DNA of 64,000 nt from Candidatus Bathyarchaeota archaeon (GTDB lineage: Archaea > Thermoproteota > Bathyarchaeia > Bathyarchaeales > Bathycorpusculaceae): positions 1 to 64,000 of the forward strand of contig CAWEPZ010000003.1 of the NCBI GenBank assembly GCA_963811105.1, given 5' to 3'. Position numbers and translations under genes: made by a program. The notes below the pieces were generated by a model, which saw only the letters and a list, made by a program, of their open reading frames with translations, searched no databases and was not told the DNA's origin. Positions within the stretch are counted from its first letter, which is position 1. Each line of letters opens with the position of its first letter. Below, piece by piece: positions 1,321 through 32,280 of the stretch.

Positions 1321-1366
1321 TTAATGTCTTGAGATTGCATTAGCGATACTAGCACTAATACACCAA
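1321..1366 (-). promoter_or_regulatory. Conserved viral late promoter/operator, copy 1
   Basis: 46 bp identical to 22214-22259; contains GCATTAG-N11-CTAATAC inverted repeat; just upstream of a minus-strand operon. Confidence 0.75.
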
Positions 1367-1549
1367 CAAAAAATATTCAAAAAAAAGGCATGACCCTATT
1401 TAATCGAACGGGTTCTGTAAAGTCTCCGCTTGATAATTTTTGTTGTGAAAATTCGTTTGGTGGCTTCTTTTGGTTTTTGGTATCAGCTTATTCGTAACTC
1501 AAAAGAAGCCTCTTTGCACTCGTTTGTCTGGCTAAAATTGAAACGCGCC

Positions 1550-1861
1550 CTAAATTTCGGTGGGAACGTCTACTTTAAAGAATTCCAGAACATTATTGCC
1601 GATTTCGGTGATGTCGCAAATCACAATATTGCCATATCCAGTTTCTTCAATAATTAAATTCTGTTTAACAAGTAGTTCTAAACAATCTTTTAGTAAGCTT
1701 CGGTTAAATTCAAATTCGGACATTATCGTGGTGAGTGACATTGGGCCTTTCTGGGTTACAACCTGCAATATGAATAAGCATCCCTCAAGTTTGCTGGGTT
1801 TCATGGGTATTGGAACCTGTTTAGCATAAACATATTTTACAGGTTTTGCTGCAACTTTCAC
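1550..1861 (-). CDS. Winged-helix transcriptional regulator
   Basis: GPMSLTTIM...SLLKDCLELLVKQNLI...ITEIG archaeal wHTH pattern. Confidence 0.75.
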   Translation of the reverse strand: MKVAAKPVKYVYAKQVPIPMKPSKLEGCLFILQVVTQKGPMSLTTIMSEFEFNRSLLKDCLELLVKQNLIIEETGYGNIVICDITEIGNNVLEFFKVDVPTEI

Positions 1862-2001
1862 TTTTTTTTCAACTCGACAAATTTGTAATTAGATTCATGT
1901 GAATATGGAATCAACTATTACCTGAGCTATTTTGGGTCGACGAAACCTTCTATGTTATTGCCGATGTTTATTCCGGCGCTGACAAGGAACCTCTGTAAAA
2001 T

Positions 2002-2118
2002 CTATTTTTCCTTGGCGATCCAGGTTCTTACTGCTTCTTCGACAGCGCGGGATAGGTCGCCTTTTTTCCCGCCAAACCTCTCGACCGTTTTAATTCTGAG
2101 ATGTTTTTCCAACTGCAT
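2002..2118 (-). CDS. Ribbon-helix-helix protein fragment
   Basis: MQLEKHLRIKTVERFGGKKGDLSRAVEEAVRTWI, typical archaeal RHH; 5' end uncertain. Confidence 0.55.
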   Translation of the reverse strand: MQLEKHLRIKTVERFGGKKGDLSRAVEEAVRTWIAKEK

Positions 2119-2991
2119 ATCCTTTCATTATTCTACTAAAATCTCGCTAGGTACATCGGTTCATCTGCTGAGGCAGAAAAAAGTTTTTGATAAGCCTTCA
2201 TGGCTTCATCTTGCCTTTCACCAACCAAGCTGAGTATTTCCTTTTCCAGCATTTCCATTTTAGATCTTGCTGCTTTATTTGCATTTTTCATTTATTTAGC
2301 CTCATATCTGAGCAGAATGGAAATAAAAGACAAACGATTCAAGAGCGATATCCTTTATCAGGACTCTACCGAAACAATACAATATCCGTGGTCGCTTATA
2401 AAGACGTGATGCATGTCCAAGAAGATGCTTCGTTCTTCGTAAGTTTGGTGTTCAATCAGAAAACCGAAAATCGCCGCTAACCACACATTGGGTAAGCGCG
2501 CTGCTTTATCCCGACATTGTGCGCACACTAACAACCCTAATTTTATATACAAACTTCTTCTGTGGTCTTGAAATTAAACTTCACCCGCTAGCTTGATGGC
2601 GTGTCACAGTTTTTCAGGCTGCATCCAAACGGGTTTGCCCTCCAATATCTCTCGCTCGGAGGACAAGTGGTTGCTCCAATAGACATTAACCTTAGTTGTA
2701 ATACCCACCATTCCTACATATTGAATAAAAGACAGCTATTAACAGACTTATGGTAACAGCGAGAAATAATAGAATGGATGGAAATAAAGGTGCAATGGAA
2801 TTCAACTATATTGATGCTGTTATACCTACTAACAGAGATAGTAACCAATCAATAATTTCTATTTAGGCAAACTAGTTTGTAAATCTACTTCTACGCTATT
2901 CGGATTTAAAACTTATCATCAATGAAAACTTATCTAAGTTACTTTAGAGTATATAGCAAAGTGTTATTAATCTTGTACGTTCTCAAAGGGT

Positions 2992-3216
2992 TTGAGGGGT
3001 AACTTGTTGGATAGGAAAGAAGCGATTGCTCTCTTAGTGGAATTAGGATCTTATGAGCTTGTTAGTCCTGATGTTGTTGTTCTTGAACAAAGAAAACTCG
3101 ATAGATACCAATTGAAAATTAGAGGTAATTATAACTTTAAAGATGTTGGATTATTTCTGAAAAATAGGTTCTGTTTGGAAGAGATCAATAATTACTTAAT
3201 TATTTTCAAGCCATAG
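2992..3216 (+). CDS. Small hypothetical protein
   Basis: 74-aa ORF with protein-like composition. Confidence 0.55.
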   Translation: MRGNLLDRKEAIALLVELGSYELVSPDVVVLEQRKLDRYQLKIRGNYNFKDVGLFLKNRFCLEEINNYLIIFKP

Positions 3217-3233
3217 AGAAAACGGTAATCAAT

Positions 3234-3359
3234 CTACCTCGTCACTTTGAAACAGCAATTACAGTCCTTACAGGTGTAAGCTTCGATGTGAAACCAACGG
3301 TTTTCTAATAATTTGACAGGTTCCGCAACATCTTTACCACAGTTAGGACATTTCGTCAT
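3234..3359 (-). CDS. Small zinc-ribbon protein (41 aa)
   Basis: Manual translation MTKCPNCGKDVAEPVKLLENRWFHIEAYTCKDCNCCFKVTR with two CxxC. Confidence 0.7.
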   Translation of the reverse strand: MTKCPNCGKDVAEPVKLLENRWFHIEAYTCKDCNCCFKVTR

Positions 3360-3460
3360 GTCAAACGCTCAGTACGGTACTATACCGCATGATAAGAGCG
3401 CTAATTACTTGAAGATGTGTTGGCGCAACTTGATACAACAAACAACCCGAACTAACCTTA

Positions 3461-3670
3461 TTACTTCCCACGAGTTCTTTCTAAGTTTTTTTCGCTGTTG
3501 CATTTCTCTTCTTCGTTCATCAGTTGAGCTAACCAATAGGTAACATAAGCTGAGAAGCTGTGAATGCCTTTTTTAATTGTGTATTCCTCTTTGACTTTGA
3601 GCCATTCTTTAAAGAAGTAATCGTAAACTTCAGCTTTTAATGTGACACTTTTATAGCCTTTCTTAGGCAT
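3461..3670 (-). CDS. RHH/CopG-like DNA-binding protein
   Basis: MPKKGYKSVTLKAEVYD...SFSAYV. Confidence 0.65.
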   Translation of the reverse strand: MPKKGYKSVTLKAEVYDYFFKEWLKVKEEYTIKKGIHSFSAYVTYWLAQLMNEEEKCNSEKNLERTRGK

Positions 3671-3805
3671 TTTATTTCCCTCTCAAGTTAGTTAGCGTAC
3701 GTATGTTTATTTAAGGTTTAACGAAGTATCTGTTTTTCCCCATTGGCGCCTCACCGTTAATTATATATCTAATTGTACGGTAAAGTACTTTGGAGATTGG
3801 ACATT

Positions 3806-3952
3806 TTGCCACGAAAAGGGTATAAATGCTTAACAGTCACGGACAAAGTTCACGCCGACATCCAAAAAAGAGCCAAAGAAACCAACCGAACATTGAGAGA
3901 ATATGTCGAATACTTACTTGCTAAAGACAAAGTTGCTAAAGAAAAGGCTTAA
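3806..3952 (+). CDS. RHH/CopG-like DNA-binding protein (48 aa)
   Basis: Manual translation MPRKGYKCLTVTDKVHADIQKRAKETNRTLREYVEYLLAKDK; GGAG upstream. Confidence 0.65.
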   Translation: MPRKGYKCLTVTDKVHADIQKRAKETNRTLREYVEYLLAKDKVAKEKA

Positions 3953-4389
3953 CAACAAGAGAATTAAAACTCTAATTTTCGTCAATGTATCTTAGTTGCT
4001 CATAGTTTCTTCTTTGAAATCCTTCTTAGCATATTGTCACTCTAACAGGGAGTATCTTCTTTAAAGCTTCTTTTTGCTTGCACTGTTAGTGAAGGTGTTT
4101 ATGCCACTTACGTACTGGTCCACATTGATAGTCATGGTGACGTCTCTTTAGGCTTATTTGCCTCAGTTGCATTGTGGTTTCGTCTGTGGCGCTTTTAGCA
4201 GTGAGTCCCTGAACCAGGTTAAGACTACGGTTTGCTGCGTCATTTAGAGCGAAGCCAGATGGAAATGCAATAAGGAACACAGCAACATAAAGCACAGCCG
4301 CAATATCAACATACGCAAAACAGTTACTAGTTTCACATGCAATCGACAAAGCGATTAAATGTAAGCACACAATGTCGAAAAATCACCCA

Positions 4390-4568
4390 AAGAAACTTTA
4401 CCCAATCTTTTCACACCACTGTTCACTACGAAAGCCCATGGCATGGGTTTCGGCTTAGCCATATGCAAACGTATCATGAAGGCGCATGAAGGCATCATAA
4501 CGGTGGAAACTGTAGTCAACAAGGGAACAACGTTCACAATAACTTTACCTATCAAACCTAAAGTGTAA
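4390..4568 (+). pseudogene. Histidine kinase HATPase_c C-terminal remnant
   Basis: LFTPLFTTKAHGMGFGLAICKRIMKAHEGIITVET...GTTFTITLP (F and G2 boxes) with no upstream kinase frame. Confidence 0.85.
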
Positions 4569-4934
4569 TCCAACCAAAAAGACGAAATCTTTGCTGGTTA
4601 AGGCTAAGATTGGTTTGAAGGAAACATAAATCACACTAAATTTGCCGAAGGTCAATTTATGGCAGAACAATTAACCCTTAACTGATAAGGGGTTAAACTA
4701 ATTTGAAAAAACCGTAAATTTGCAGGCTAAATTCAAATTTAATCTTTTTTTCTCCATCGAACGCATACACTTGCGACTACTCACTCTCACTCACACACGC
4801 ACGCGCGCCTAACGTCTGTCAATCTCTCTTTATCAGTCAACCTTTCTGTTACAAACTCAAGACGGCTACCAAGTTTCCGAAAGCAAGGAAATTCTTAAAT
4901 ACAAATTGGTACGAAATACCAATCGGGGTTCTGG

Positions 4935-5720
4935 GTGTCTAATGACGAAAACACTGACCTACTACTCGGTTTAGGTTTGAGTCTTGATCAGGCAAGGGTG
5001 TATTTAGCTGTACTTAAACTGGAAAAAGCTACTGTGTTACAACTAGCGAAGTTTTCAAAAGTGTACAGAGAAGATGTCTACAAAATCCTGCCAAGCCTTG
5101 AAAAAATGGGCCTAGTCGAAAGATTGCTGGGAAAACCAGCTGAGATCCGAGCTACGCCTATTTCAGATGCTTTAAGCTTACTGGTGGCTGAAGAAAAAAA
5201 CAGATCTGATGACCGTTTAACGGGGATGAGAAGTAGAGTCCAAAAGTTGTCTCTTAAGGATTGGAAGCAGCCGATTCCTGGGGAAGAAAGCATCTACATA
5301 TTGGTAGCAGAAAAAAGGGCGGTTTTGGCAAAAACTTCAGAATTGATTAGAAACTCAAGAAAAGAAGTGTCTTTGGTTGCAGGTAAGGCAAGGATTATTC
5401 CGACTTTGTCTCAGTTTTCGGAAGAATACAGGCAGGCAATAAAGAAGGGGAGTCAGATTTACCTGATTTTTGAAGGAGACCTCCCGGACGGATTGCTCAA
5501 AGAAAAAGTGAATAGACTCATCGATGGTACGTCTGTTCACATAAAATTTCATCGTGAACCTTTGAATCACTTCATAATGTCCGATGACAAAGAAGCTTTG
5601 ATTACCAACTCCAAAGAAGGCGGATTAGATGAAAACCCTTCTCTTTGGACAAACAACAGCAACCTCATTGGCGTGATAAGAAAAAGTTTTGAATCCGACT
5701 GGAAAGAGTCTGAAGACTAA
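4935..5720 (+). CDS. TrmB-family transcriptional regulator
   Basis: LGLSLDQARVYLAVL...VYKILPSLEKMGLVE wHTH plus PLD-like effector domain (FIMSDDKEALI). Confidence 0.85.
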   Translation: MSNDENTDLLLGLGLSLDQARVYLAVLKLEKATVLQLAKFSKVYREDVYKILPSLEKMGLVERLLGKPAEIRATPISDALSLLVAEEKNRSDDRLTGMRSRVQKLSLKDWKQPIPGEESIYILVAEKRAVLAKTSELIRNSRKEVSLVAGKARIIPTLSQFSEEYRQAIKKGSQIYLIFEGDLPDGLLKEKVNRLIDGTSVHIKFHREPLNHFIMSDDKEALITNSKEGGLDENPSLWTNNSNLIGVIRKSFESDWKESED

Positions 5721-6074
5721 CTTGAAAATCTCATTTCTTTTTGTGTGATAGAGAATTATTCGCTCGGCAAGTGCAGATCTTTTTGTTGCTTACTTCGCTC
5801 TGCTTTTCTTAAGATTGGTTTGCAGGAGCTGTAGATGTGCCATTACAGTCACAAGTTTTTATTAGCAATTTTTGGACTTATATACAAGTATTGGTTAAAT
5901 GTGCATGTTTTATATTTAACAATTTCATCATCTTCCTATACTAATTTAAATTAGTCTTTAGGTATGGCTGAATTGATCTAAATTGTTAATAAAAAGCAAT
6001 TTTGCTTTTAATTCATAAAATTTATAAGCAAATAGTTCAGTTATTAAGTAATCAATTTCAGGATTGAAATAACT

Positions 6075-6326
6075 TTGGAAACTGTCAACATCACATCTGA
6101 TGAAGAAAAATCCGCGAAATGCATCGAATGCGCGTGTGGATTCAAGATTGACCTTTCATGCGATGCAAATCAAATGGGCAATGCAATTGCTGCTCACGCC
6201 CAAGAACATGTGAAACCAAAATCAGATATCGCAAGTGCCAAGGCTCAGGCATCTCGAATTGAATACCTCCTTATTGAGAAGGTTTTCATAGCAATTAATC
6301 GAATACCGCAAGTCTTCATTTTTTAG
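6075..6326 (+). CDS. Small metal-binding protein (CxC...H...H)
   Basis: CIECACG...AIAAHAQEH. Confidence 0.6.
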   Translation: METVNITSDEEKSAKCIECACGFKIDLSCDANQMGNAIAAHAQEHVKPKSDIASAKAQASRIEYLLIEKVFIAINRIPQVFIF

Positions 6327-6436
6327 GATAAATTAGAACTTTACCCAGGTAACAGTTTTTCTCTGAAAAATTGAATGTAAGGCGCGGTAGTTTTACTGAA
6401 ATAACCTTTAAGTTATAGTAAAACTATAAGCAATAG

Positions 6437-6706
6437 ATGCGGAAAAACAAAATGAACACTCAAATGGACGAAGTTTACTTCGCCTGTAAAAAAGCAGTCC
6501 TAGAACTCCCAGCTGAAGAATGTCTAGCGAAAATAAGAGAAATCTTTACCCCCGAAATTCAAGCAGCTATGCTACAAAAAGACAAGGAGTACAAAGAAGA
6601 AACACGAAAAATGCTTAACCGCGAACACGCAAAATCAAGACGCGACCTCACCCGCAAACGCCGATTCGGAGCAAGAAAATACAAGTCACCACAACCTGAC
6701 GCTTAA
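6437..6706 (+). CDS. Hypothetical basic protein
   Basis: 89-aa ORF with ATG start. Confidence 0.5.
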   Translation: MRKNKMNTQMDEVYFACKKAVLELPAEECLAKIREIFTPEIQAAMLQKDKEYKEETRKMLNREHAKSRRDLTRKRRFGARKYKSPQPDA

Positions 6707-6991
6707 CACCCCTAAATTTTAAATGCAGCTTGGTTAAAGAAATACAAGCGTTGACCGATTTGCCTTACAAGTCAGGTAGTTGGGGACCAGAAGAGCAGCA
6801 ACGAAGCAAGAGACGGCTAGAATACTTCAGTAAATATTCTAAGAAAAAATACGATTTATACTCTGAAGAACAAAAAGCAGAACTTACAGCGCAATCATTA
6901 GAGTAGTTTTGATTGCACAAGAAATTAATTGTGATTTCACTTTGTTACTTCACAAGTTTTATAAAGCGAATGTATTATTGTTAATTATGCT

Positions 6992-7043
6992 TAAGTTAAT
7001 TAGAGTTAACTTAATTATATCTAAGTTAAGTCCAATTAACTTA
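6992..7043. promoter_or_regulatory. Double palindromic operator TAAGTTAA-N6-TTAACTTA x2
   Basis: Perfect copies at 6992-7013 and 7022-7043 (30-bp period), upstream of a wHTH gene. Confidence 0.8.
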
Positions 7044-7095
7044 AATATTTCATTATTAATTGAATATGTTTCCCAACATATTAGAGGTGAAAAAA

Positions 7096-7443
7096 ATGAG
7101 CACTGAACAAAACTTTCAAGAAATTAAACAGCGAGCAGAAAAGATAAGTAGGAAAAACGACACATTTAGCAACCCAATACGAGTCCTAATAATTTCAGTG
7201 GTACTTGCGAAAGAGGAAATAAGCTGGAGTCAACTGAAAGAATACTTGGAGAAAATAATCAGTATAGGCGTTAATCCAAATACACTAAGTTTCCATTTAG
7301 CTAAACTCGTTGAAATGGGGTATCTCGAAAAAGCTGGGACTAAAGAACAACCTGCATACAAAGTGTCAAAAGCAAAAATTTCAGAAATCGCCATTTACCT
7401 AGACCCAATAATCGTCGAAGAAATTAAAAAGAAGGTATTATAA
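7096..7443 (+). CDS. ArsR-like winged-helix regulator
   Basis: FSNPIRVLII...PNTLSFHLAKLVEMGYLEK; GAGGTGA RBS before ATG 7096. Confidence 0.8.
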   Translation: MSTEQNFQEIKQRAEKISRKNDTFSNPIRVLIISVVLAKEEISWSQLKEYLEKIISIGVNPNTLSFHLAKLVEMGYLEKAGTKEQPAYKVSKAKISEIAIYLDPIIVEEIKKKVL

Positions 7444-7703
7444 TGACTTCTCAAAATGAAGTAGCCGATTTGGCATTTGTCTTGAAGAGTGCGGTTGCTT
7501 CTGGACTGAACGAACAACAAGAAAGAGTTTCAATAGAAATTAAAGAATTTTCAAGAATAGGACAGGCCTATACCGTTTCAGCCACCTTTAAAGTTACCCC
7601 ATTTTTTGTTACAAGAACTGGAAATGTATTTGCAGCATTTGTGAAAACAGAAAAAGGATTTGAGATTACAAGCCTGAAAATAATAGAGGATAAAGGATTG
7701 TAG
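7443..7703 (+). CDS. Small hypothetical protein, translationally coupled
   Basis: TAATG stop/start overlap with the wHTH gene. Confidence 0.7.
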   Translation: MTSQNEVADLAFVLKSAVASGLNEQQERVSIEIKEFSRIGQAYTVSATFKVTPFFVTRTGNVFAAFVKTEKGFEITSLKIIEDKGL

Positions 7704-7707
7704 ACGC

Positions 7708-8340
7708 TTGGCTGAAGACGCAATCTCGATAGTGCTATTGCTTGGTAGCTACAGTAGTAAAACAAAAAAAACGCTAAATAATATCAAAGAAGAGATTGCA
7801 AAACAATTTTCGGGGAGACCTTATGCCTTCCTTCTAGCGAATTTAGAAATATACATGACTGAGAGATTTCAAGTTTTAACTGAGACTGAGGAAAACAAAA
7901 GGATAACGGTATATTTATTTCAAGACAATTCTCTTTGTGATGTTTACGATATACCTTTTTCCGAAGGCCAAGAACAAACACAAATCGTTTATAATTTTAT
8001 GAGCAAAAAATTCGATATTTCGAAAATAAAAAAACAAACTATTTTTCAAAAATTTGATTGGCTGATGGGACTCTCAAAGGGGATTTTTCTCATAAGGGAA
8101 GAGGAACTAACTCGCGGGGGAGAATATGTTGAACTGATGCACACGCTGTTTTCTGGAAAGGGGAAAAAAATTTGGTTTTTCAAAAAAGACTCAATTCAAG
8201 TTTCTTCTATGCTAATGGAATACTTAGATACTTTTGAAGTGAAAATGCGGTCTTACTCAAAGGAGAATGAACTTTTAGCTGAAATAATTAGGATTGTGGG
8301 TTATCTTGAAGAAAAAGCCAGTGCCACTAAGACTATTTAG
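7708..8340 (+). CDS. NDT/TIR-like flavodoxin-fold protein (putative)
   Basis: VLLLGSY strand, IFLIREE..RGGEYVEL with candidate catalytic Glu, KIWFFK strand. Confidence 0.45.
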   Translation: MAEDAISIVLLLGSYSSKTKKTLNNIKEEIAKQFSGRPYAFLLANLEIYMTERFQVLTETEENKRITVYLFQDNSLCDVYDIPFSEGQEQTQIVYNFMSKKFDISKIKKQTIFQKFDWLMGLSKGIFLIREEELTRGGEYVELMHTLFSGKGKKIWFFKKDSIQVSSMLMEYLDTFEVKMRSYSKENELLAEIIRIVGYLEEKASATKTI

Positions 8341-8733
8341 ATTATGCCATATTAGGATTTTTTTAAACCATAATAAGGGCAATTAACTAATGAACGTCGG
8401 CGCCTCTGATTATCTTTTTCTAACTCCGGTATACAATGTAAGCAAAAACTCTGACCAAACCGTTGAAAGCCCGGGGAGCCTCAAGTTATAAATATTTTGA
8501 ATAACTACAACAAAAATAGGGATTTGGAATGGCATCCGCAATACCTCGGTAAGCTTAGAGTCAGTGTTCAAGCAACTAAAGTAACCACAGAAGGAGAAAC
8601 CGCCAAATTTTTCTATAAAGTAAAAAATATCGGTTCTACGACGTTTAGTGGATTTGTTCAGATGATGCTTTCATAAAATATTGCGAACAAAAAATGAGTG
8701 AAAAGCGTTAAGAAATTACTGAGCCCCAAGGCA

Positions 8734-8980
8734 TCAATAGTCCTCGGGAAGCATAACAGTGTAGCGGCTTGACTCGTTTTGGGCAATAAAGATTTCCTGT
8801 GAACTCCCGGAAGGCAACTGGATCCGCCCGCTTACAAAGTAGTCATCGACAGGTTTCTTACGGAAAACCCTAAGCGACTGATTAATAAGATCACGCAGAT
8901 TGGCGACGTTGATTGTGTTATCCGGGTTCCAGTAGCCTTTGGCTAGAAGGCCTGTGGTTATGAACTGAGGGTTCTGTCAA
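8734..8980 (-). pseudogene. MGE-type small protein ending TVMLPEDY (5' disrupted)
   Basis: Manual translation FITTGLLAKGYWNPDN...IFIAQNESSRYTVMLPEDY. Confidence 0.45.
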
Positions 8981-8988
8981 GTTGTCGG

Positions 8989-9317
8989 TTATTTCTTCTC
9001 CATGTAAACTTTCGGTTGCTGACTTGCATTCTGAATTAGTTGAGGTTGGGTACATATTTTCTGCCAAATTACATCGTTTAGCTTGTACTCGAGTTCCCGC
9101 AATTCTTCTGTTGAGCCAACAAAATAGACATCACCATAGGCTCAAAAATTATCGGGTTACACGCTGCCCCACTTGCCATCCCATTATCCCTACACATATC
9201 CATCAACTCATCAAAGGCAACTCGTGCTTCCTCGTTTGGCAAAGCATTTCTAAAGCTTTTCCACCTATGAATCTCAAACTCCAAAGCCATCCGATACGAA
9301 GGAACAGTCTTACCCAA
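8989..9317 (-). CDS. PolB2-associated small protein-like (arCOG07300-like), C-terminal frameshift
   Basis: MGKTVPSYRMALEFEIHRWKSFRNAL...FDELMDMCR...NPIIFEPMVMSILL. Confidence 0.6.
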
Positions 9318-9489
9318 CTCAGCTAAGCCTCCACACAATTCGTTGTCTTCATCATAACCAATCACGTAGGGCTCCCGCTTATGGTTCAGACTGCTTAAAA
9401 AGAAAGCGAACAAACTACTCATTTGAGCAGTGGAGACGTGGATGAAAGTAAAAAATGCTTCCCCCTGAACTGCTGGCTTAAACTCAAAA

Positions 9490-9743
9490 TTTAATCGAAG
9501 AAAACAAACAAATGAGCTACGCACACCAAAGAAGAATTCGTACGCGACGCCATAAGATCTATACTTGAGAGACTCAAAAACGACAACGAATTTGTTGAAG
9601 TCTCACGCGAACAATACGATGAGCTGGAAGAAGCCCTAAAAGAAATGGGCACCACATACCGCACACCAGAACAATTCATACGAAGCCAAATAAGCGAAGT
9701 ACTCTACAAATACGACGAATACAAGAGAAGAAAATTAAAATAA
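9490..9743 (+). pseudogene. CopG/RHH regulator, frameshifted
   Basis: TKEEFVRDAIRSILERLKNDNEFVEVSREQYDELEEAL frame lacks an intact start. Confidence 0.55.
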
Positions 9744-9831
9744 AATGCTGTCTGGCAGCACATTCATGGTCATTGTGCTGATCCTAAGCAGTAATTGTTG
9801 AGAATATTGACGTCTCTATGTTAGCCATTGG

Positions 9832-10134
9832 CTACAATTTATCGAAAAACTCAATCAGTAGCTTTGCTACTTTTTCACCGAATTCCGTTATTATATAATA
9901 CTTTTTTAGCGGATCAATCCGTTCACTCTTGGCTAACCCCAAGGATTCAATTTCGATCATTCGTGCCCTAAACGTGCCGTCGCTTAGCGTTAGCTCATTT
10001 TCGTTCATAAAATCTTTAGCATTTTTCCATTTTCCTCTGCCGGTATGGAGCAAAAGCAAGCAGTCGATGGCGTGGTCTTTCTCCAACATAGATTTTAGAG
10101 CCGAATACTTTTTGTCTGTTAGAATCTTTGCCAT
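9832..10134 (-). CDS. Winged-helix regulator (HxlR/PadR-like)
   Basis: LSDGTFRARMIEIESLGL...YYIITEFGEKVA. Confidence 0.75.
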   Translation of the reverse strand: MAKILTDKKYSALKSMLEKDHAIDCLLLLHTGRGKWKNAKDFMNENELTLSDGTFRARMIEIESLGLAKSERIDPLKKYYIITEFGEKVAKLLIEFFDKL

Positions 10135-10464
10135 TTTTAGATCTTCATATTTATCGGATTTCGTTTAATAGGCCTCTTCCAAAGATGTAATTTTAGCAGT
10201 GTCTCATCGTAATAGACACCTATTCTTCTCAGCGTTTTGCGCTAATAAGCGTTGCTACAATCAAGCAATATTGCTGAGTTTAAGCAATGGCATTCACTTG
10301 CTTGCTAAAAAGCACAGTTCTCGCAGACTATTGCATCATCAGGATTATCATGTCCACATGATTTGCAAGACCACAAAAGGACCACCATTACAGCAGTTAT
10401 TTGATTGAGTAGTTTAATACATTTTTCGAAAGTACGCTGGCTTGCAAAATCAATTAATTTAGTT

Positions 10465-20134: not shown

Positions 20135-20155
20135 TTTGTTTTTTACCTCCATATT

Positions 20156-22163: not shown

Positions 22164-22205
22164 ATTCACCAAACCTCAATACTTACTACTCAAACACATC
22201 AACTG

Positions 22206-23303: not shown

Positions 23304-23907
23304 GCAATTGTTATAAAATCTCTAATATGCTTTTGTTATTTTAGCTCAAGATGAAAGGGGCAACTGACATTTTCTTTCCAATAATAGAGGGTGCGGAAGG
23401 CGACCGCTTAGGGCGCTCTTCGCGGTGGCGTGAACGCCTCAGATTCTTAGGTACAGTCTTATGTCTCCTAGGGTGTCAGCGTGTTTATAGCCTCTAAGGA
23501 GTGCCTGTTTGATTGCTTGAATGTCGTTTGCTTTAACTTCAATTATGTGTGGTAAAGTTGCCCTTTGTGGGATTGGTAGTAACGGTTGTATTATCCTCTA
23601 CTATTTCGTTGCAGCAGTTCATTTCTGCTTCACGTTTAACTCTTATGAATTTGTACGCTTTCAAATAAGCTTCTTTAAGTTCTTCATCTGTCGGTAGGCT
23701 GTAAGCATCTCGACTATTTATCAGCTGGTACCAAAGCGAGCTGATATACCCACGTTATAAGCGAAGGAACCAAAACATGTAGTTATCTTTAAAGTTCTAA
23801 CTTCTTCGCAAAATGGCGAAAAGGTTCAGAGTTTCAATGAATGGCTGCTTCTACATCTCAAGAACACAAGAAAGAAAATGGATAAGTAGCCAAAAGTGCT
23901 GAATGCT

Positions 23908-25017
23908 TCATCGTTTTTTCTTGGCGATTAAAACAATGCTTGAAAGAACGATTAATCCAACGACTAACGCTATGGGCGTTAATTCTGGAACTGTTGGGCT
24001 CGGTGAGGGTGGGCTTGTTGGTTGGGTTGTTGCTGCTGGTTTTGGGGTGCTCGGTGGCTGTGTCGGAGCTGTTGTGGGTGCTGAAGTTGGTTGCGTTGTG
24101 GGACTTGATGTTTGGGTTGGAGCTATAGTTGGAGAAGGAGTATCAGTAGGGCTTGGTGTCGGAGTTGGCGTTGGAGAAGGTGTTGGCGATGCCGTTGGGG
24201 ATGGCGTCGGAGTTGGCGAAGGAGAGGGCGTTGGGGTAGTGGTAGGAGTTGGTGAGGGCGTTAGGGTTACAGTTGGTGTCGGCGAAGGCGTCACCGTTGG
24301 AGTTGGAGTAGGTGATGGATTTGGAGAGTCACTTTGAATCGAATACTCAAGAGACTGAACAGTTAACGTATAACTTCTCACAAGGGCTGATCTTGAAGTA
24401 TCATAAAGCCTAAGGAGAAAAGGGGCGATCTGGTTTGGTTGAAGGGTAGTGGGACTAGTGAAGGTGTATCCCTCAGCTACCACAATTCCCGCTTGGTCGT
24501 AAAACGTGCCGACAACCTGAACGTAAGTAGCGTTCGCCGATGCAACATTTTCAATCAGACCGTCAACATGCAGATAGCCATTACTGTCAAGGTAAGAGTA
24601 GTTAAAGCCAACTTTAAGGCCTGCAGGCAAAGCAGACGTAGTACTAAAAGAATAATATAGAGAATAATGGTCGACCTGACTAACAAAAACCGCATCACTG
24701 AAAAGCAAATCGAATGGTGAATAATCTCCCGAATTAAGTTTGCTCAACTCTGTATACGTATAGCCAGAGCCAACAAAAGTTCCATTCACACTGTAAAAAT
24801 AGGCTGTTATCTTAACATACATTAATGCTTGGCTTCCAACATTATGAACTTCACCAACAATGTGATAAGTGCCAATCGAATTAATGTAGGAACTGCTTGA
24901 GGTCAGCAATATGGGGTCAGCTGGGTCAGCGGCCTGCGTAGGTAAAACAACCCAAAGAGATGCAAATAAAAGGGCACATGTGATGAAGATAAGTACTTCC
25001 CAGAGAGGTTTTTTCAT
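23908..25017 (-). CDS. Cell-surface protein: two FxLYD-like domains, Pro/Thr stalk, VPEL + TM + KKR sorting tail
   Basis: Signal peptide; repeated [16 protein letters not shown] / [17 protein letters not shown]; PT repeats; PEF-CTERM-like end. Confidence 0.85.
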
Positions 25018-25330
25018 ACGAAAATCTCTAAGGTTTTTTTTTGATTCATATGCAACTTTCCTTCTTCCAAATCAAATAGCCCTAAGTAGATTAATAATAC
25101 TTTAGAAATAGGGTATCTTCCGAATAGCAAGGTAAATACTTTATTCTCTTTAAACGTCTTTCAATCTTACTGTTAGTGTAGAGAGCTGGTGTGTTGGACG
25201 TAACCCGCCTTATGTTTGGATTTCTTGAATTAGATCAGCAAAATAGCGGTAGCTTCTGAGTGGGTCTTCTGCCACCCAAAACAGTCTTGTCCAATTCAGA
25301 TATCCGTATCAACGCTTGCCTCAGCAAGCG

Positions 25331-25441
25331 GGAACTCAGGCAGATGGCCACATAAGTCGCCATGGACCTTAGCGACAAACCCCATCCGCTGCACCTGATA
25401 CATGAACAGGATATCCGGTGTAACGCAAGCGTCATACTTGA
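25331..25441 (-). repeat. Diverged duplicate of glycosyltransferase 3' end (27148-27262)
   Basis: ~110-bp alignment with about 10 substitutions and 2 indels. Confidence 0.85.
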
Positions 25442-25583
25442 TCTGAAATTCCTTTTTTTCTCTCAGGTTTTAGTTTTCTTGGAATATTCTTCTCTAAGTG
25501 ATAAGTAATTTTCAAGAAAATATGAACCAAAACTCACTCCTTGGTTCAGAATAGACTTATATGTTTAGGGCATAAAGTAAATA

Positions 25584-25910
25584 ATGAAGAAGATGCCTGC
25601 TGAGATGTCTGCTATTGACGTAGTCACGATTTCTTTTGCATTGTCTTCAATTCTTATTGGGGCAGCTATCTTTCTTCTCGGTTTTTACATTTCCGACAGA
25701 AACAAGGGAATTCCGAAAGAGCAACGAAGCCCTTATAAATACTTGGTCCTGTCTCTAACGATTCCCTGTTACTTCATTATTGCTTATTCTCTGTTGTTAA
25801 TTATTAGTGAAGCGACAACTTCTTTTGGGGTATTTGCCGTTTTCTGTTCGGCTATTTCTTTGGTACCAGCGATAGCAATTAGTGCAATCATAATAACAAA
25901 CTGGAACTAG
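25584..25910 (+). CDS. Three-TM membrane protein
   Basis: Three hydrophobic segments. Confidence 0.7.
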   Translation: MKKMPAEMSAIDVVTISFALSSILIGAAIFLLGFYISDRNKGIPKEQRSPYKYLVLSLTIPCYFIIAYSLLLIISEATTSFGVFAVFCSAISLVPAIAISAIIITNWN

Positions 25911-25921
25911 GACGTGAAGGT

Positions 25922-26284
25922 TTGACAGGACGCAAACGCTCTGGAGATGCCTTGTCAACAATTCTACAAAACGAGAAAGTTTTCGACTTTATAGATTCAA
26001 AGAAGGAAGACCTTAGAAAGGTTTTTGCAGCTCTGGTGGATGCCTTTGAGCAACTTTTTCCCAACGCGCCTCTTAAGTTGGATATAATTGGAAATTTGAT
26101 ATGGGACGTAATCAAATATGAAAATAGGATTATTAACGTCTATATTTTGCATGACTTTGGAATGGAAAACTGGGGACACTACGGTGGACCGAACATAGTT
26201 TCAGAACGAATTATAGATGAAATATTTCAAGTTCTCGAGATCGATATTGGGGATATAAAGCTTAAGAGTCGCAGTCAAGAATAA
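25922..26284 (+). CDS. Hypothetical protein
   Basis: 120-aa ORF in apparent operon. Confidence 0.6.
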   Translation: MTGRKRSGDALSTILQNEKVFDFIDSKKEDLRKVFAALVDAFEQLFPNAPLKLDIIGNLIWDVIKYENRIINVYILHDFGMENWGHYGGPNIVSERIIDEIFQVLEIDIGDIKLKSRSQE

Positions 26285-26341
26285 AGATTAAATAACTTAA
26301 CTATACTTAGTTAACTTCTGTAAGAAGGCGAAGAGGCAAGA

Positions 26342-26929
26342 ATGGTAGTCAAACTAAGCGATAAAGAAATCGAAATTCTGCAATTCAAACGTAAAGGTCT
26401 CAAGAACAAACAAATTGCAGAAATGAAAGGTGTTTCTGAACCAGACATTAGTCAGACTTTGTCTCGCATAACCAAGAAAATAACTTCAATACAGGATGTC
26501 TTTGGGGTATTGCAAGATGTCGGGGTATTTAGAAATGATGTGGAAGTAGAGCTAACGGAAAGTGGTCGGACTTTTCTCAATAAGATAAACGAAACTCGAC
26601 CAGAGAGAGTTCATTTGGATAAAAATGGGTTAAATATTAAAAAAGCTGACAGACATCTTGAACCATCCGTTGAATTCAATGTTTCTAGAAAAACTGGGCC
26701 TCACAAGCGTTTCAGAGTGCAATGCCCCTGCGGCTATGGTCTTGGCACTTTCAATGACGAGAAAGCTGCCATAGTAAAGTTAAGATTGCATGTTGAACGT
26801 TTTCATATGGATTTTCTTCCTTTTGGAATTACTAACGCAGAGGCATTGACTCTGTTAAAGAAAGCAAGAGAAAACGAAGGAAGAGAAAAACAAGAAACAA
26901 AAAGTTTCGTCAAGCAAAATGCCCTTTAA
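26342..26929 (+). CDS. LuxR/sigma70-r4-type HTH regulator with C-terminal zinc finger
   Basis: LSDKEIEIL..GLKNKQIAEMKGVS; CPCG...LHVERFH. Confidence 0.75.
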   Translation: MVVKLSDKEIEILQFKRKGLKNKQIAEMKGVSEPDISQTLSRITKKITSIQDVFGVLQDVGVFRNDVEVELTESGRTFLNKINETRPERVHLDKNGLNIKKADRHLEPSVEFNVSRKTGPHKRFRVQCPCGYGLGTFNDEKAAIVKLRLHVERFHMDFLPFGITNAEALTLLKKARENEGREKQETKSFVKQNAL

Positions 26930-27085
26930 CTCAATGAAAGACATTGAGGTCTCAATAGAAACTAAGAAGTCATAGACCTGTCTTCCGCTTTCTTTTTAGT
27001 AACTTTACAAGGTTCAAAAGTCTTTTAAGCAGGCCGCATTTCGCAGCAACCACTAGTATCCTTTAAGAGAATTAGAGATAACTTT

Positions 27086-27700
27086 CTATTTATAATTTGG
27101 GATTTCTCTTTTTTGTGGTTCTCCTAAGTCCCCTGGCTCAGGAAGTGGGAATTCTGGCAGATGCCCACATAAAACATCGCCATGGACCTTAGCGACAAAA
27201 CCCATCCGCTGCACCTGCAAACATAAACAGGATATCCGGTGTAACGCATGGGTCAAACTTGAAACGGTAACCGCCCGCAAAGACGCATCTTTTGATTAAT
27301 AGGCAGCTTGTTCCCGCCATAACCCAGCCGCTAAGGATCTTGCCTTCAACAGCGTTTAGCGGTAAATACCAAACAGTCATGTTTTCATCTAGGAAACCCA
27401 AGAATTAAGCCTTGGCCGTTATGTCGACGCACAAACCCACAAGCAATATCAACATTTAAGCCGAGCAGCTTCTGAAAAGAACTAGGCGGAACCTGCACAT
27501 CTAACTCCACAAGCCACAAATGGCTATAGTCTCCGGAGAGAAACTTTTCTACAATAAGATTTTGGCACTCCACAAGGCCTGCCCACGGAAGTTTTACTTG
27601 AGGGCGGAGAAACAAAAACCTCATGATCCACACCTTGCAAAGCAGCCTCCACAAAAGTCAGAGTCGAAGCTAAATAGCCGTGGTAACGATCTTTATCATT
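27086..27700 (-). pseudogene. Glycosyltransferase family 2-like protein (frameshifted)
   Basis: DYSHLWLVELDV, VDIACG, AGTSCLLIKRCVF and VHGDVLCGHLPE motifs over three frames. Confidence 0.7.
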
Positions 27701-28100: not shown

Positions 28101-28997
28101 TTAAGTTAGTCCTGTGAGTTCGCAGATGCTTTCTGCACGTTTTATTCGTGGGGCAACAACTTCGAAGACTTTGCATTTCAGATTCATGTCGTCGTCTTCT
28201 ATGGAGCGGACGTTCATGTCGCGGCCGATGACCATTTCGAAGTTGTCTTTGCCCAGTTCAAGAACCAGTGCACTTGTGGTTAAGCCGGCGCTTGTGAACA
28301 GACTATCACTGGTGTAGATGCCTGCAGGGAACAGCGGGTTTGCACCCTGAATGACATCAATCCATTTGGTAGCTGAACCCGAAACGAGGCCTCTTAGCTT
28401 CGCATTCCAAGCAGACCGCAAAACACAAGCATAGTTCTGCTTGTTGGTAAAGCCGTCTTCCTCAAGTTTCCCAACTGCATTGCTTAGGTCAGCTAAGGAA
28501 CCTGCAGGCCAAGCTGCGCCACTACTTTGAGTATTTCTACCTGTAGCGGTGGCTAAGCCTTCAATGCCTAAAGCTTTCCATCCAGCGTATTCGCCTGTGA
28601 TGAGTAGTTTGTCCTCTTCCTCGGCTACTTGTCTTGCTGCATCAATTGCTTCCTGTACATCAAGCGGCTGTCCACTGCTCGGCTAGCCTCCAGATCTCTC
28701 CAGTTGATTTTGAAGTTCTGATCTAGCACCGGCACAGTAATGTCAAAGGGTGTTTTCACTGAGCGGTCCTTGGACCCTGTTTGACCGTATAGGCTGATTC
28801 TTGCTTGCCCCTTACTTGTGCGCTTGTATCCGCGCATCGTTAAGAAGCCTGCGTGAGGTAAGGTCTCAACTGGGAACAGCTTACGACCGATCAATGCAGG
28901 TTGAACAGCTTCAGTTATCCGATCCTCAATGTACAGTTATTTCTTCGTCAGTTAGCTGAGCAGTATCCATATTTCCAACTCTTCTTAAAGATTGCAT
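28101..28997 (-). pseudogene. Major capsid protein, HK97 fold, encapsulin/Linocin-M18-like (two frameshifts)
   Basis: MQSLRRVG...LIGRKLFPV...FKINWRDLEAS..PLD...AARQVAEEEDKLLITG...GL; located after scaffold and cement genes. Confidence 0.85.
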
Positions 28998-29008
28998 GTT
29001 TAGTTCTC

Positions 29009-29485
29009 CTATGAGGCAGCAGCCGCGTCTGCAGCAGGCTTCCAGTGCACTAGAATTTTGGCGTCTGTTGTTACGTTGCTTGACTCCCAAGCGTAGCCGA
29101 TTACTCTACCCTGAGCACCCATAGCGCCAACTGCTAGTTTGGCAACTTTGCCATCTGCAGCAGTGACCAGTGGGTCGCCTCGAGTAACGTTCTCGGCAGC
29201 TAGGAGAGTTAGAACGCATATGCATTCGCCAAAAATCACAGGTACTTGATCGCCAACTGCATAAGCTTCAGTTACTTGTTTGTCAGCAACTACGTCAAGA
29301 ACACCACATTCGACACTTGCTTTAGCACCAGATTCCTTCACAGTTTGGTCAACAGCATCGAAGATAACAACGCGTCCAGGCAGCATATCTGCTGGAGTAG
29401 CAGCGGCGCCAACTTCCATCTCAATCGTCAATGGATCGCCTGCGGCGACGATTTGGTTGCTTGGTTTAACTATACCTTGCGGCAT
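29009..29485 (-). CDS. Capsid cement/decoration protein
   Basis: Ala/Gly/Val-rich, VTRGDPLVTAADGKV motif, immediately before MCP. Confidence 0.7.
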   Translation of the reverse strand: MPQGIVKPSNQIVAAGDPLTIEMEVGAAATPADMLPGRVVIFDAVDQTVKESGAKASVECGVLDVVADKQVTEAYAVGDQVPVIFGECICVLTLLAAENVTRGDPLVTAADGKVAKLAVGAMGAQGRVIGYAWESSNVTTDAKILVHWKPAADAAAAS

Positions 29486-29487
29486 AG

Positions 29488-29904
29488 CTAAGCAGCTCCC
29501 TTGCGTCTTCGGGCAGTTACTACACTTTGGTCGCCGATCGTCAGACCTTTTTCTCGGTCAGACATATCAGCACCATGCACGCCATAGCGGACACTGTTAA
29601 CTTTGGGAGGCATCGCCTGATCCAAAGTAGCCTTGATACTTTTCAAGTCGGCAATGCTTTTGCCTGCAAGATCAGCCACTTTGAATTGGCTCTTGGGCAA
29701 AATATCACCGATTAACTTAGACTTCTCTTGGCTTTCCAAAACCTTGTTAACCTCTTCAAGTTGTGCAGTCAAATCGCGATTCAATGCGTTAACGCGGTCT
29801 AATTCTTGCTTTTGACTCTCAATAGTACCCAATGCTTCGTCCAGATTCATTTGCATAACTGAGTTTTTTGGTTTTTTGTCGTCCACATTTGCTTCATTTG
29901 TCAA
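29488..29904 (-). CDS. Capsid scaffold protein
   Basis: Coiled-coil protein between protease and cement/MCP; likely TTG start near 29904. Confidence 0.6.
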   Translation of the reverse strand: MTNEANVDDKKPKNSVMQMNLDEALGTIESQKQELDRVNALNRDLTAQLEEVNKVLESQEKSKLIGDILPKSQFKVADLAGKSIADLKSIKATLDQAMPPKVNSVRYGVHGADMSDREKGLTIGDQSVVTARRRKGAA

Positions 29905-29939
29905 ATTTTTTTCCTGCCATTTATTTCCGCTATTTATAA

Positions 29940-30046
29940 CGCCCCGTCGTGGTGGCGAGTGCCCCATCCCGCACTAGTCATAACATTTTGTCGGCCTTTC
30001 GGCATGTTACTTAGAAGCCTACGTGAGTGCTCAAGCACATCACTAG
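29940..30046 (-). ncRNA. Candidate structured cis-RNA between protease and scaffold genes
   Basis: Hairpins GTGA(T)GTGC-TTGA-GCACTCAC; TAACAT..GCC-GAAA-GGC..ATGTTA; AGTGC..GCACT; CGCC..GGCG. Confidence 0.35.
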
Positions 30047-30079
30047 GTTGAAGAATCTCCTTAGTTTTGGCAGTTTTAT

Positions 30080-30835
30080 CTAGGTCACTGTGTCGTTGTT
30101 TTCTTGGACCCAAGCTTGAGCCTTCTCAGGAGTCCAGCCTTTAGACACTTCAAACAGGTATTCTCTTGTCGCAGCGTCTCCGGAAGCGAAACCGGAAGGC
30201 AAGAGGTTTTTCTTGAGTTTGCCAACTAGGGCATAGACGCCTTCCTTCGCGTTTACGGCTAAGGTGCTTAGGCGGCAAGCAAACAGAGACGGATCCAAAA
30301 CATTAACTCGCAGGAAGCCGTCGAAACTATCCATCTGCAACCCACAAAAAGGTGCAGGACATCGACCCTCAGGCACCCCGACAGCTACATGACCAAACAT
30401 TAGGTTTGTCTGCTTAAAATCGTAGGGCTCACCTGCAAAAGTGCCAGGAACACAGACGTCATCGCTGTAGTATGCGCAGCTCACGTCCTTGGAGAGTTCG
30501 CCTTTGCGAGCCCTCTCGAGCAAGGCCTCATCGCAAAGAGCCTTCATGAAGTAGACGTTCCCAAAGACGCTGTTAGTTTTTTCGTCAAAGGCAATGTCTT
30601 TGACTTTGCCACGAATTACCGCACGCTTGCGGACTTCAATCGTTGGGACATGGTTGTAAACCACAACCCAGGCGCCGTCTAGGGTGAATGCAGCAGCCTT
30701 CAACTCATCGGCTGGTTTGAAGCCGCGGCCATTGCAATAGTTGGAAACGCATTCTCGAGCAAGAATTGTCGGAACAATAACAGCAGTTTCTGTTTCTTGA
30801 ATCTTCTTTGAAGAGTCAAATTCAGTTTGAGCCAA
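30080..30835 (-). CDS. Capsid maturation protease, DUF2213-like
   Basis: VYNHVP, DVSCAY, GEPYDFKQTNLMFGHVAVG..GRC motifs. Confidence 0.8.
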   Translation of the reverse strand: MAQTEFDSSKKIQETETAVIVPTILARECVSNYCNGRGFKPADELKAAAFTLDGAWVVVYNHVPTIEVRKRAVIRGKVKDIAFDEKTNSVFGNVYFMKALCDEALLERARKGELSKDVSCAYYSDDVCVPGTFAGEPYDFKQTNLMFGHVAVGVPEGRCPAPFCGLQMDSFDGFLRVNVLDPSLFACRLSTLAVNAKEGVYALVGKLKKNLLPSGFASGDAATREYLFEVSKGWTPEKAQAWVQENNDTVT

Positions 30836-30842
30836 ACGAAGG

Positions 30843-32199
30843 TTAATCAGGTTTCTTTTTCCTCCTCAACCGTTTTGCAAGCCATAAATAAGCAGAATCC
30901 GATGATTCAGCCCCAGAACCATTGGAAGCCTTTGCATCAGTGCCCGTCTGTGTAGGCTGAGGAGGCGGTGGAGGCGCTTTCAAGCCTAAAACAACTTTGC
31001 CTGCCCCCTCGGGTAGAGGTAACTTGCCCTCTTCAGCTCGTATCTCATCGATAGTGCACCAGGCAGTTTGTAGGTTGTGAGCCTGGGCTAGCTGATACTC
31101 GATGGTTGCTTTCGCGACTTCATCAAGTTCAAAACCGGATGGCCAAACAATCTGGTAGTCGTTCACGCGGCGGATCTGGCCTGTTTCCATGAGGCGGTCG
31201 ATCAGGTTCCAGAGAATAGGTGTAGGTCCTGTCTCCTGCAGGGCAGCTATTCCACCCCAATATTCACGATCATTAACTTCACTCCCAGCAAGTGCTCCAG
31301 CGTTGGCGCCACGTAAATGAGAAACGGGAATCCTAGCTCCGCAACTCATGACTTTCCAGTGTGGACGTAATGTAGGGTTCAGGATTGACAGCTTTGCCGT
31401 TAATGCCCTTGAAGTCTAAGGTTGATTTGTCGTCATGCACAAAATGGGTGCGAGCATTTAGGGCTCTGAATTGTTGGCTGTTCTCAAAATCATCTAGCTG
31501 TTTTTTCTTGGCACCGTTGAGGGTAATGTCAGGGAACCCAGACCCGTACCTGACAAGGGTTTCGCCTAGTGCCCAACGTTCATTGCGATAAACTGTTGAG
31601 TCGTCGTAAATAACTTCTAGGCAGGATAAGCCTTTCCAGGGATGATCCAGCAGCCGAGTAGCGCAATGAATCGCCCTAGAATAATGGAACTTCTTTTCCA
31701 CTCCGGTAGTTGTTGAGCGCCTAAAAGTATAGAGAACAGGCAGCCCAAACCGTGGGCTATTTTCGTCTTTATCCTCATCGGTATAGGCTACACTGCAGGT
31801 AAACGAGGTGTAAGGGACGAGCTCACGGATCTCCCTGGGAGACTCGACAGGTTGGCTTGGATCCGCTCCATAATCAACGTAAGTGATGGCGAGGACTGCC
31901 CAGCCGAATAATCGTTCAAAAATAAGAAGCTGCCTTATGGCTGCCGTCGCGTTTAAGTCATCTAGGACCTTTGCAACTTCGCGGCTCCACTCTGGATCAG
32001 GTTTCTCAGCGACTTCCTCAACCGTAAAGCCCTTGCTAAACATATCATAGGGAACGTCAAAAACTAGTCGCTTTGAAACAGGTTCACGTTTAACACTGAA
32101 AAGCAAATCTTGCTCATTTAGCGGCTGCCCAAAACGAGCCTGCCAGGTAGCGCCAGAACCACGTACACCGTATGTATCCGTTGAATTAGCCCTCGCCAT
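30843..32199 (-). pseudogene. Portal protein, DUF1073-like (one frameshift near 31350)
   Basis: ERLFGWAVL, SPRFGLPVLY, FHYSR, IPVSHLRG and TIDEIRAE motifs. Confidence 0.85.
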
Positions 32200-32226
32200 A
32201 ATCAACCGTGAAATTAAGATCAATTA

Positions 32227-32280
32227 GCTGAGCATTAATAGCTTGAGAGCGCATTAACGATACTAGCATTAATGCAACAA
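32227..32280 (-). promoter_or_regulatory. Conserved viral late promoter/operator, copy 3
   Basis: 46/54 identity to 22206-22259; perfect GCATTAA-N11-TTAATGC; upstream of portal. Confidence 0.75.

Follow-up and report, generated by a model that had tools for sequence, protein, structure and literature searches.

A putative promoter-plus-operator cassette ahead of three late gene blocks in a tailed Bathyarchaeia provirus

In temperate viruses such as lambda (nut, with boxB) and HK022 (put), two or more operons begin with a conserved hairpin, and the stoperators of mycobacteriophages are 13-14-bp asymmetric sites that occur in dozens of copies inside operons. For the cluster A mycobacteriophages, part of PMC9283540 describes these stoperators as many short sites in fixed orientation to transcription that are bound by the immunity repressor. 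In P2/P4, the late promoters PP, PO, PV and PF carry the dyad TGT-N12-ACA before four late operons and are Ogr-dependent, as set out in a portion of PMC3931495, and among archaeal viruses a portion of PMC11065993 reports that the Sulfolobales viruses SIRV2 and SMV2 have a virus-specific consensus around the B recognition element (BRE) and TATA box of early anti-defence genes, in some cases with inverted repeats thought to be regulator-bound. Little is in print on late-gene timing in tailed viruses of uncultured archaea, and the word 'promoter' is absent from the main texts of PMC10848311 and PMC11705971, which deal with Bathyarchaeia viruses and proviruses. Here we describe a conserved block of ~60 nt that occurs three times in 64,000 nucleotides of a Candidatus Bathyarchaeota archaeon (contig CAWEPZ010000003.1, positions 1 to 64,000; 'the window', whose coordinates are used below), each time ahead of a late gene block of a decaying tailed provirus.

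The block is real and non-random. Its sequence family, positions and gene contexts are established here, as are its confinement to a single lineage of viruses, a composition like that of promoters and the way in which the late array is split. With a little more confidence than doubt, we read it from sequence comparison as a promoter-plus-operator cassette that belongs to a single lineage of Bathyarchaeia viruses, tailed and with a Mu-like head. Along the genes, which lie on the minus strand of the window, the cassette would comprise in order a T-rich stretch, the 25-bp near-palindrome GYATTAGTGCTAGTATCGYTAATGC, the segment AATCTCAAG and a weak BRE/TATA-like box (AAG-nn-WTWAAWG). We infer that the host TBP, TFB and RNA polymerase would start transcription ~22-27 nt downstream of this gene-proximal box, and that a virus-encoded DNA-binding dimer on the palindrome, just upstream of the BRE, would decide whether initiation occurs. 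As to the sign of regulation, we favour an activator, which we regard as a fair possibility without being confident of it, over a repressor bound at an operator with the T-rich stretch as the TATA, an arrangement that looks decidedly unlikely.

The three copies and the genes behind them

Copies 1 and 2 are identical at 46/46 bp (1321-1366 and 22214-22259), with different bases on both flanks, and copy 3 (32227-32280) matches 22206-22259 at 46/54 positions, in agreement with a sequence-only reading of the window made earlier. The arms are as reported there (copies 1 and 2, GCATTAG-N11-CTAATAC; copy 3, GCATTAA-N11-TTAATGC), and the palindrome that they form is perfect in copy 3 but imperfect in copies 1 and 2, where GCATTAG is paired with an arm whose reverse complement is GTATTAG. 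Searching the window with the degenerate 25-mer GCATTARCGATACTAGCAYTAATRC at <=3 mismatches returned three matches, all on the plus strand, compared with a mean of 0.00 in 100 dinucleotide shuffles of the window that served as the chance expectation, and a repeat search grouped the same three sites as one 72-nt family (D1). We collected 21 full and 2 degenerate copies from two genomes and three metagenome contigs. Over the 21 full copies the conserved part is longer than previously described, running in gene direction through TTTTRTTGGT, the 25-bp near-palindrome, the AATCTCAAG segment and nnWTWAAnGC; this block of ~60 nt is sharply bounded, and the flanks outside it are unrelated between types.

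Copy 1, of the terminase-module type (1315..1371, minus strand; nhmmer E 2e-18), contains the T-rich box, the near-palindrome at 1337-1361, the segment AATCTCAAG and the A/T box. Copy 2, of the neck/tail type (22205..22265, minus strand; nhmmer E 9e-19), has its palindrome at 22230-22254, and copy 3, of the portal/capsid type (32227..32285, minus strand; nhmmer E 3e-14), has its perfect palindrome at 32251-32275; both were also found by pattern match. The putative proximal BRE/TATA-like box, whose position is fixed in 21/21 copies, lies on the minus strand at 22212..22224 in copy 2 (CAAGACATTAATG), with equivalents at 1319-1331 in copy 1 (CAAGACATTAAAG) and 32233-32245 in copy 3 (CAAGCTATTAATG). 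Column conservation also marks a distal T-rich box on the same strand, at 22255..22264 in copy 2 (TTTTATTGGT; score 4.7 with the host matrix described below), 1362-1371 in copy 1 (TTTTGTTGGT) and 32276-32285 in copy 3 (TTATGTTGTT), which is a candidate for an alternative TATA or for part of a terminator.

In what follows, contigs of the source genome (G000; 3.49 Mb in 15 contigs) are labelled C1 and so on, and G131 and G078 denote genomes of relatives. Judging from family matches, the element is part of a tailed archaeal provirus, in which one copy stands before the terminase-module block, one before the neck/tail block and one before the portal/capsid block. Every copy lies upstream of a minus-strand virion-gene block, which bears out the claim that each of the three morphogenesis operons is preceded by the element; the same symmetric element precedes 3/3 late blocks of the window as well as paralogous remnants, as would be expected of an activator-dependent late regulon of the P2 Ogr or Mu C type. 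From the end of copy 3 it is 51 nt to the portal ATG at 32199, and the block behind it (28101..32199, minus strand; family matches) holds a portal gene split into two open reading frames (ORFs) by a 1-nt indel relative to its paralogue on C4, a head-maturation protease, a scaffold/decoration-like protein and a capsid gene in pieces. Copy 2 ends 100 nt from the TTG at 22129 that opens a 59-aa ORF, behind which the neck/tail block (13664..22129, minus strand) shows matches to phrog_5 (tail completion/Neck1) and to a tape-measure-like protein, along with a weak match to Mu gp36, collinear with G131. Copy 1 ends 60 nt from the TTG at 1276 that opens gene 1 of the terminase module (15..1276, minus strand; ORF calls), where the frame-shifted gene 1 (1127-1276 + 819-1214) is accompanied by a 103-aa ORF and a 151-aa Myb/HTH gene before the contig end interrupts the block; in paralogous copies on C7 and C6, the gene that follows Myb/HTH is the large terminase.

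In the whole source genome, we found 15 matches at <=3 mismatches and 0 with a reversed control pattern, and an nhmmer profile added two degenerate copies, C1:8948 and C7:3058, to give 17. The gene-proximal flank types track the downstream gene, with 8 copies of the terminase-module type, 4 of the neck/tail type (plus C1:8948) and 3 of the portal type. In nearly all copies (16/17) the gene that follows is the portal, the terminase-module gene 1 or the gene for the small membrane protein with which the neck/tail block opens, and none lies at an unrelated host locus, the 17th (C7:3058) being too degenerate for its context to be judged, and the orientation and position before these three non-homologous viral gene sets are fixed in all 15 pattern matches and in C1:8948. 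Beyond the source genome the pattern is absent from 36 same-genus genomes, and 24 same-order genomes gave only one, uninspected, 3-mismatch match. Public genome contigs yielded 24 loci, of which 3 are true copies, all from one Bathyarchaeota metagenome-assembled genome (MAG); the other 21 were judged to be chance matches, having flanks without similarity and with ~17 expected by our own estimate. All 3 loci in public metagenome contigs are true copies. The single match in public viral contigs was judged from its flanks to be due to chance, and a portal query found no relative among those contigs.

Late arrays of relatives and promoter likeness

Portal homologues are present in 16/150 same-family genomes, and four loci were compared. 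In G131, whose portal is 61% identical, a single uninterrupted array runs from portal, protease and capsid through neck and tail to gene 1, Myb and TerL, with no internal repeats (blastn, E <=1e-3) and with an ordinary AAAAGGCTTTTAAG promoter upstream. In the window, copies 2 and 1 lie at the far junctions of inserts of ~5 kb (22.3-27.2 kb) and ~12 kb (1.4-13.7 kb), at the points where the late genes resume. The shorter insert (22266..27188; GC profile) separates head from neck genes and is absent from the collinear G131 array; the longer one (1372..13663; TrmB, ArsR-like and wHTH genes, GC profile) separates the tail genes from the terminase module, whereas in G131 the tail genes continue straight into gene 1. 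Both are low in GC (0.35-0.43 vs 0.47-0.50 in the late genes) and both carry plus-strand genes and regulators, including a 195-aa GerE/LuxR gene at 26342-26926 in the ~5 kb insert. Under our preferred reading, the split of an ancestral single late array by these two insertions of low-GC DNA would account for there being three copies: each resumed block needs a promoter, and each has its own copy of the cassette.

A second relative, G078, has a portal that is 56% identical and is without the window element. It has a 45-nt cassette of its own on contig C2 of that genome (L068+L069, region positions 19559-19603 and 31346-31390), which stands before two late blocks in copies that are 93% identical. 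Its terminal GCTTTTAA box lies 33-36 nt from the ATG and scores 5.1-5.8 against the host matrix. This cassette is like that of the window in belonging to the same virus group, in being used before more than one late block and in the geometry of its BRE/TATA-like box, which matches the 34 nt between the proximal box and the portal ATG in the window. It is unlike it in being of unrelated sequence, in having TTGTTAG-type direct repeats and no palindrome, and in occurring in only two copies in the 33.8 kb examined. The comparisons with G131 and G078 provide, in our view, the strongest support for a promoter cassette in which the proximal box would act as the TATA.

To describe host promoters, we used the upstream regions of 37 tRNA genes (Gibbs sampling, -70 to -19); sampling on 80-nt upstream regions was noisy and was superseded by this range, and the position signal upstream of 796 long host ORFs was too diffuse for use. 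The motif obtained begins ~42-53 nt ahead of the 5' end of the tRNA and consists of AAAG[CG] and then TTTAAAT. From 29 tRNA promoter sites it gave a position weight matrix (PWM) of 17 columns that can serve for this uncultured lineage, with a 99th genomic percentile of 3.3 bits and with a median of 8.4 and a lower quartile of 6.3 for the tRNA promoters. In composition, the gene-proximal A/T box looks like a promoter, as the sequence-only reading had suggested, since CAAGCTATTAATG agrees with the host tRNA-promoter consensus AAAGCTTTAAATG at 10/13 positions in a hand alignment. At the place of the BRE, an AAG is kept almost unchanged over 21 copies, and CTCAAGCTATTAATG and its close variants score 4.6-6.0 bits in 7/21 copies, above the 99th genomic percentile. 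In the window, the box scores 4.6 bits in copy 3, 1.0 in copy 1 and -0.7 in copy 2. Such scores below the level of tRNA promoters suggest a weak promoter, as would be expected if it were activator-dependent. A further pointer comes from runs of at least six T within 40 nt upstream of the palindrome, which are found in 10/11 terminase-type copies vs 0/10 copies of the other types. Oligo-T is an archaeal termination signal, and because these runs sit upstream, transcription of the terminase block should start inside the cassette. Sequencing runs that share words with 22400-32350 number 19, all of DNA and each with <=0.15 of the words.

Symmetry of the palindrome, rival readings and candidate regulators

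A number of observations weigh against a promoter controlled by a dimer on the palindrome. The proximal box reaches only about -0.7 to 2 bits in 14/21 copies, among them copies 1 and 2 of the window, and in 3 copies the distal T-rich box, at 4.7-5.8, does no worse than the proximal one; because both boxes are weak by host standards and score alike, the TATA assignment is ambiguous. With 18 bp between the centres of the arms, a simple dimer would have to contact different faces of the helix, and conservation at the middle of the spacer equals or exceeds that of the arms. The 11-bp spacer had been called invariant, and it is so in the three window copies, but 5/11 positions vary among 23 copies and C1:8948 has a spacer of 9 nt between perfect arms. 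The compensatory change attributed to the arms is also less clear in the larger sample: at the variable pair 11 of the 21 copies have G-C, 8 are changed in one arm only, so that symmetry is broken at that position, and only 2 are changed in both. The compensatory argument is weaker because of these 8/21 copies. Across homologues, 97-99% of helix cells are paired with a single pair changed on both sides, and covariation does not rise above shuffles, the observed score being reached in 82/500 and 322/500 of them. All imperfections are of the G-U type on the gene-sense strand, where 166/168 cells are canonical (27 of them G-U) vs 139/168 on the antisense strand, where they become A-C. Within one subfamily, the cassette shows no more conservation than the coding DNA beside it (~89% vs ~88% identical in one pair compared by eye). 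Palindromes of the ATTAG type are absent near 11/13 of the sites examined around paralogues of the candidate regulator (GerE, see below). Finally, the portal (30843-32223), capsid (28101-28894) and tape-measure (17767-19113) genes are each in 2-3 ORFs vs intact homologues in G131, and gene 1 is frame-shifted, whereas the neighbouring host genes are intact. The provirus is probably defective on this evidence, and because it is broken the window copies may be relics of a functional ancestor.

Because all of the imperfections are G-U on the sense strand, an RNA hairpin in the leader stays a live rival, albeit one that we consider unlikely. According to this explanation, a hairpin in the 5' leader of each late block would be bound by a virus protein in the manner of boxB/nut or put, with the effect of terminator-resistant transcription or of altered processing, stability or translation of late mRNAs. 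For the sense strand of all three window copies, ViennaRNA predicts a hairpin with a stem of 10 bp and a loop of 7 nt (CUAGUAU) that is conserved (centroid -9.7 to -12.7 kcal/mol), and the hairpin does not form on the antisense strand of copies 1 and 2 (centroid -0.7). Read as RNA, the variable pair is G-C (11), G-U (8) or A-U (2) and never A-C, C1:8948 keeps a perfect 7-bp stem as its loop goes from 11 to 9 nt, and the loop core GCTAGTAT is nearly invariant. However, covariation was no better than in the shuffles given above, the strand asymmetry comes from ~3 independent positions and so could arise by chance about 1 time in 8, and the fold z-scores are modest (-1.2 to -2.5). Nothing is conserved upstream of the cassette that could act as the promoter of such a leader, the T runs of the terminase-type copies lie there instead, and a TATA in the distal box would put the transcription start inside the hairpin. 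Rfam at the gathering threshold gave 0 matches in the 64-kb window, which also contains no tRNA genes. We know of no RNA-based antitermination system in archaea or archaeal viruses; if the hairpin were to act in this way, nut-like control would be extended to archaea, to our knowledge for the first time in that domain. A coding role for the block, as a signal peptide or small upstream ORF, was rejected, there being no conserved frame or start codon and an indel that puts the ATGs of C1:4062 and C1:6059 in different frames.

It is quite improbable that the block merely marks a mosaic boundary, that is, an exchange hot spot at which modules are shuffled between related viruses with little or no regulatory role. 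Homology between copies does stop at or inside the block, for example within the left arm in L036, and at the portal on C4 nothing of it is left but what lies downstream of the palindrome. In one provirus, copies 2 and 3 have another 15 nt in common (GCTCAGCNANTTGAT) where other proviruses have GCAAAG..., which suggests conversion within one genome. In addition, C1 has three tail-type cassettes (C1:4062, 6059 and 8948) 2-3 kb apart, each before different truncated genes, an arrangement that looks like cassette-bounded junk or repeated recombination. A site of exchange, however, does not require strict orientation and a fixed distance to the first late gene, and it does not explain why the block resembles a promoter in composition or why its geometry recurs in the G078 cassettes; no integrase or recombinase family was matched among the 84 window ORFs scanned.

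A host-wide repeat (the end of an insertion sequence, a miniature inverted-repeat transposable element (MITE) or a solitary CRISPR repeat) that lies near these genes by chance is highly implausible: the host-genome scan, in which a MITE had been the outcome to watch for, did find a multi-copy motif with a hairpin-forming 25-mer core (17 copies in 3.49 Mb, several near contig ends), but in 16/17 copies the genes that follow are homologous to one of the three viral gene sets given above, with only the degenerate C7:3058 apart, and the copies thus do not represent a MITE, 0/36 same-genus genomes and, in 24 same-order genomes, only the one uninspected 3-mismatch site carry the motif, and a simple spaced-repeat scan of the 15 contigs gave no CRISPR-like array (arrays possibly being unassembled). 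From their contexts, the multiple copies reflect many decayed provirus remnants. The only periodic repeats that the spaced-repeat scan returned were an array at C9:231029 and tandem arrays that repeat every 84 or 95 bp. The 84-bp-period array is at C1:13796-14149, and five tandem copies of a 95-bp unit lie at C9:7353-7827, ~900 nt from a terminase-type cassette at C9:8730.

If the block is a promoter-plus-operator cassette, the best candidate for its regulator is a stand-alone GerE/LuxR-type HTH protein of 64 aa (37514..37705, minus strand; Pfam GerE E 2e-07, with weak PDB matches to the DNA-binding domains of NarL, SsrB and EsrB), encoded by the last gene of the early module. By family matches, this early/regulatory module (37711..42384, minus strand) holds wHTH genes, HTH_45, a 340-aa protein, a PolX-like nucleotidyltransferase and an RHH gene, and the module (37.5-42.4 kb) recurs beside other provirus remnants. 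Further candidate regulators are HTH_45 (38710-39042), the wHTH proteins (37711-37998, 40671-40931 and, in the ~12 kb insert, 1553-1861), the RHH protein (41930-42163) and the 195-aa GerE protein of the ~5 kb insert. The wHTH/LuxR genes at 37.5-41 kb had been put forward as activators; HTH and LuxR-type genes are indeed present there, but what connects them with the site is synteny, and none is tied to it directly. A GerE paralogue on C6 is co-directional and ends ~30 nt before the palindrome of a portal-type cassette, and GerE-like paralogues or fragments are divergent from the portal on C4 and in G078. In the GerE-like/portal intergenic region of G078 (L068, C2), ~150 nt upstream of the portal, TTATTAG-N24-CTAATAA surrounds TTTAATTAAA, and this palindrome has a TATTAG half-site in common with the window element. 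A scan for [CT]ATTA[AG]-N7-32-[CT]TAAT[AG] matched 2/13 GerE sites, namely the cassette itself and one that is probably unrelated, and with inverted repeats near only these two a general link between GerE paralogues and the site was rejected. As judged from sequence, the connection of GerE to the cassette is a lead only.

Several other features of the provirus and its surroundings were noted. Among the 84 window ORFs, the Pfam scan identified regulators of archaeal type (TrmB, HTH_45 and HTH_10) as well as an EF-2-like elongation factor of 738 aa. Between the early module and the portal cassette lies a 939-aa PQQ/beta-propeller gene with Ig-like domains (33348-36164, minus strand), of which there are ~100 paralogues over most contigs and which probably belongs to a host rather than a viral family. 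The 151-aa Myb/HTH gene that follows gene 1 (15-470, minus strand; MAKGKPWTVEEERQL...) has >30 tblastn matches genome-wide vs 4 places for the portal, and may travel independently of whole proviruses. In and beside the ~5 kb insert, near-identical stretches at 25357-25441 and 27177-27262 (98% and 90%) show that a small gene is present twice (25235-25435 and 27189-27401), and a homologue of it lies directly behind a tail-type cassette in C1 and in the other Bathyarchaeota MAG.

Comparison with known control elements

Stoperators and the window element are alike in being a repeated site across a prophage in fixed orientation relative to transcription, but the window has three blocks of ~60 nt, each at the head of an operon. 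With the lambda nut and HK022 put sites, it has in common a hairpin at operon heads whose pairing is specific to the sense strand, as predicted here by folding; unlike in those systems, no N-like protein was identified here, there is no sequence relation, and the window hairpin is predicted from DNA only.

Closer in logic are the Ogr/Delta promoters of P2/P4, which, in the part of PMC3931495 drawn on here, likewise present, in a tailed virus that is temperate, a partially symmetric element repeated before more than one late operon for morphogenesis. Theirs are bacterial and use sigma-70, whereas the window has an archaeal BRE/TATA and an unrelated 25-bp block, and activation is proposed only. 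No Ogr-like zinc-finger gene was noticed in the window, where no search was aimed at one. The Sulfolobales virus cassettes are similar in that, in the portion of PMC11065993 concerned, one long virus-specific sequence with a core promoter is reused before many genes. They differ in being strong canonical promoters of small, early, single genes in crenarchaeal rod-shaped, filamentous or spindle-shaped viruses, as far as that portion describes them, whereas the window cassette has a weak TATA-like box before late virion operons of a tailed Bathyarchaeia provirus.

A 60-bp cassette and a few small HTH proteins make a concrete pair for in vitro assays without host culture, and the comparison of relatives shows how inserted DNA can break a single late operon into pieces that each gain the same control cassette. 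By analogy, the window cassette resembles the logic of the P2/P4 and Sulfolobales virus promoters, and it differs from them in domain, sequence, gene class and apparent promoter strength.

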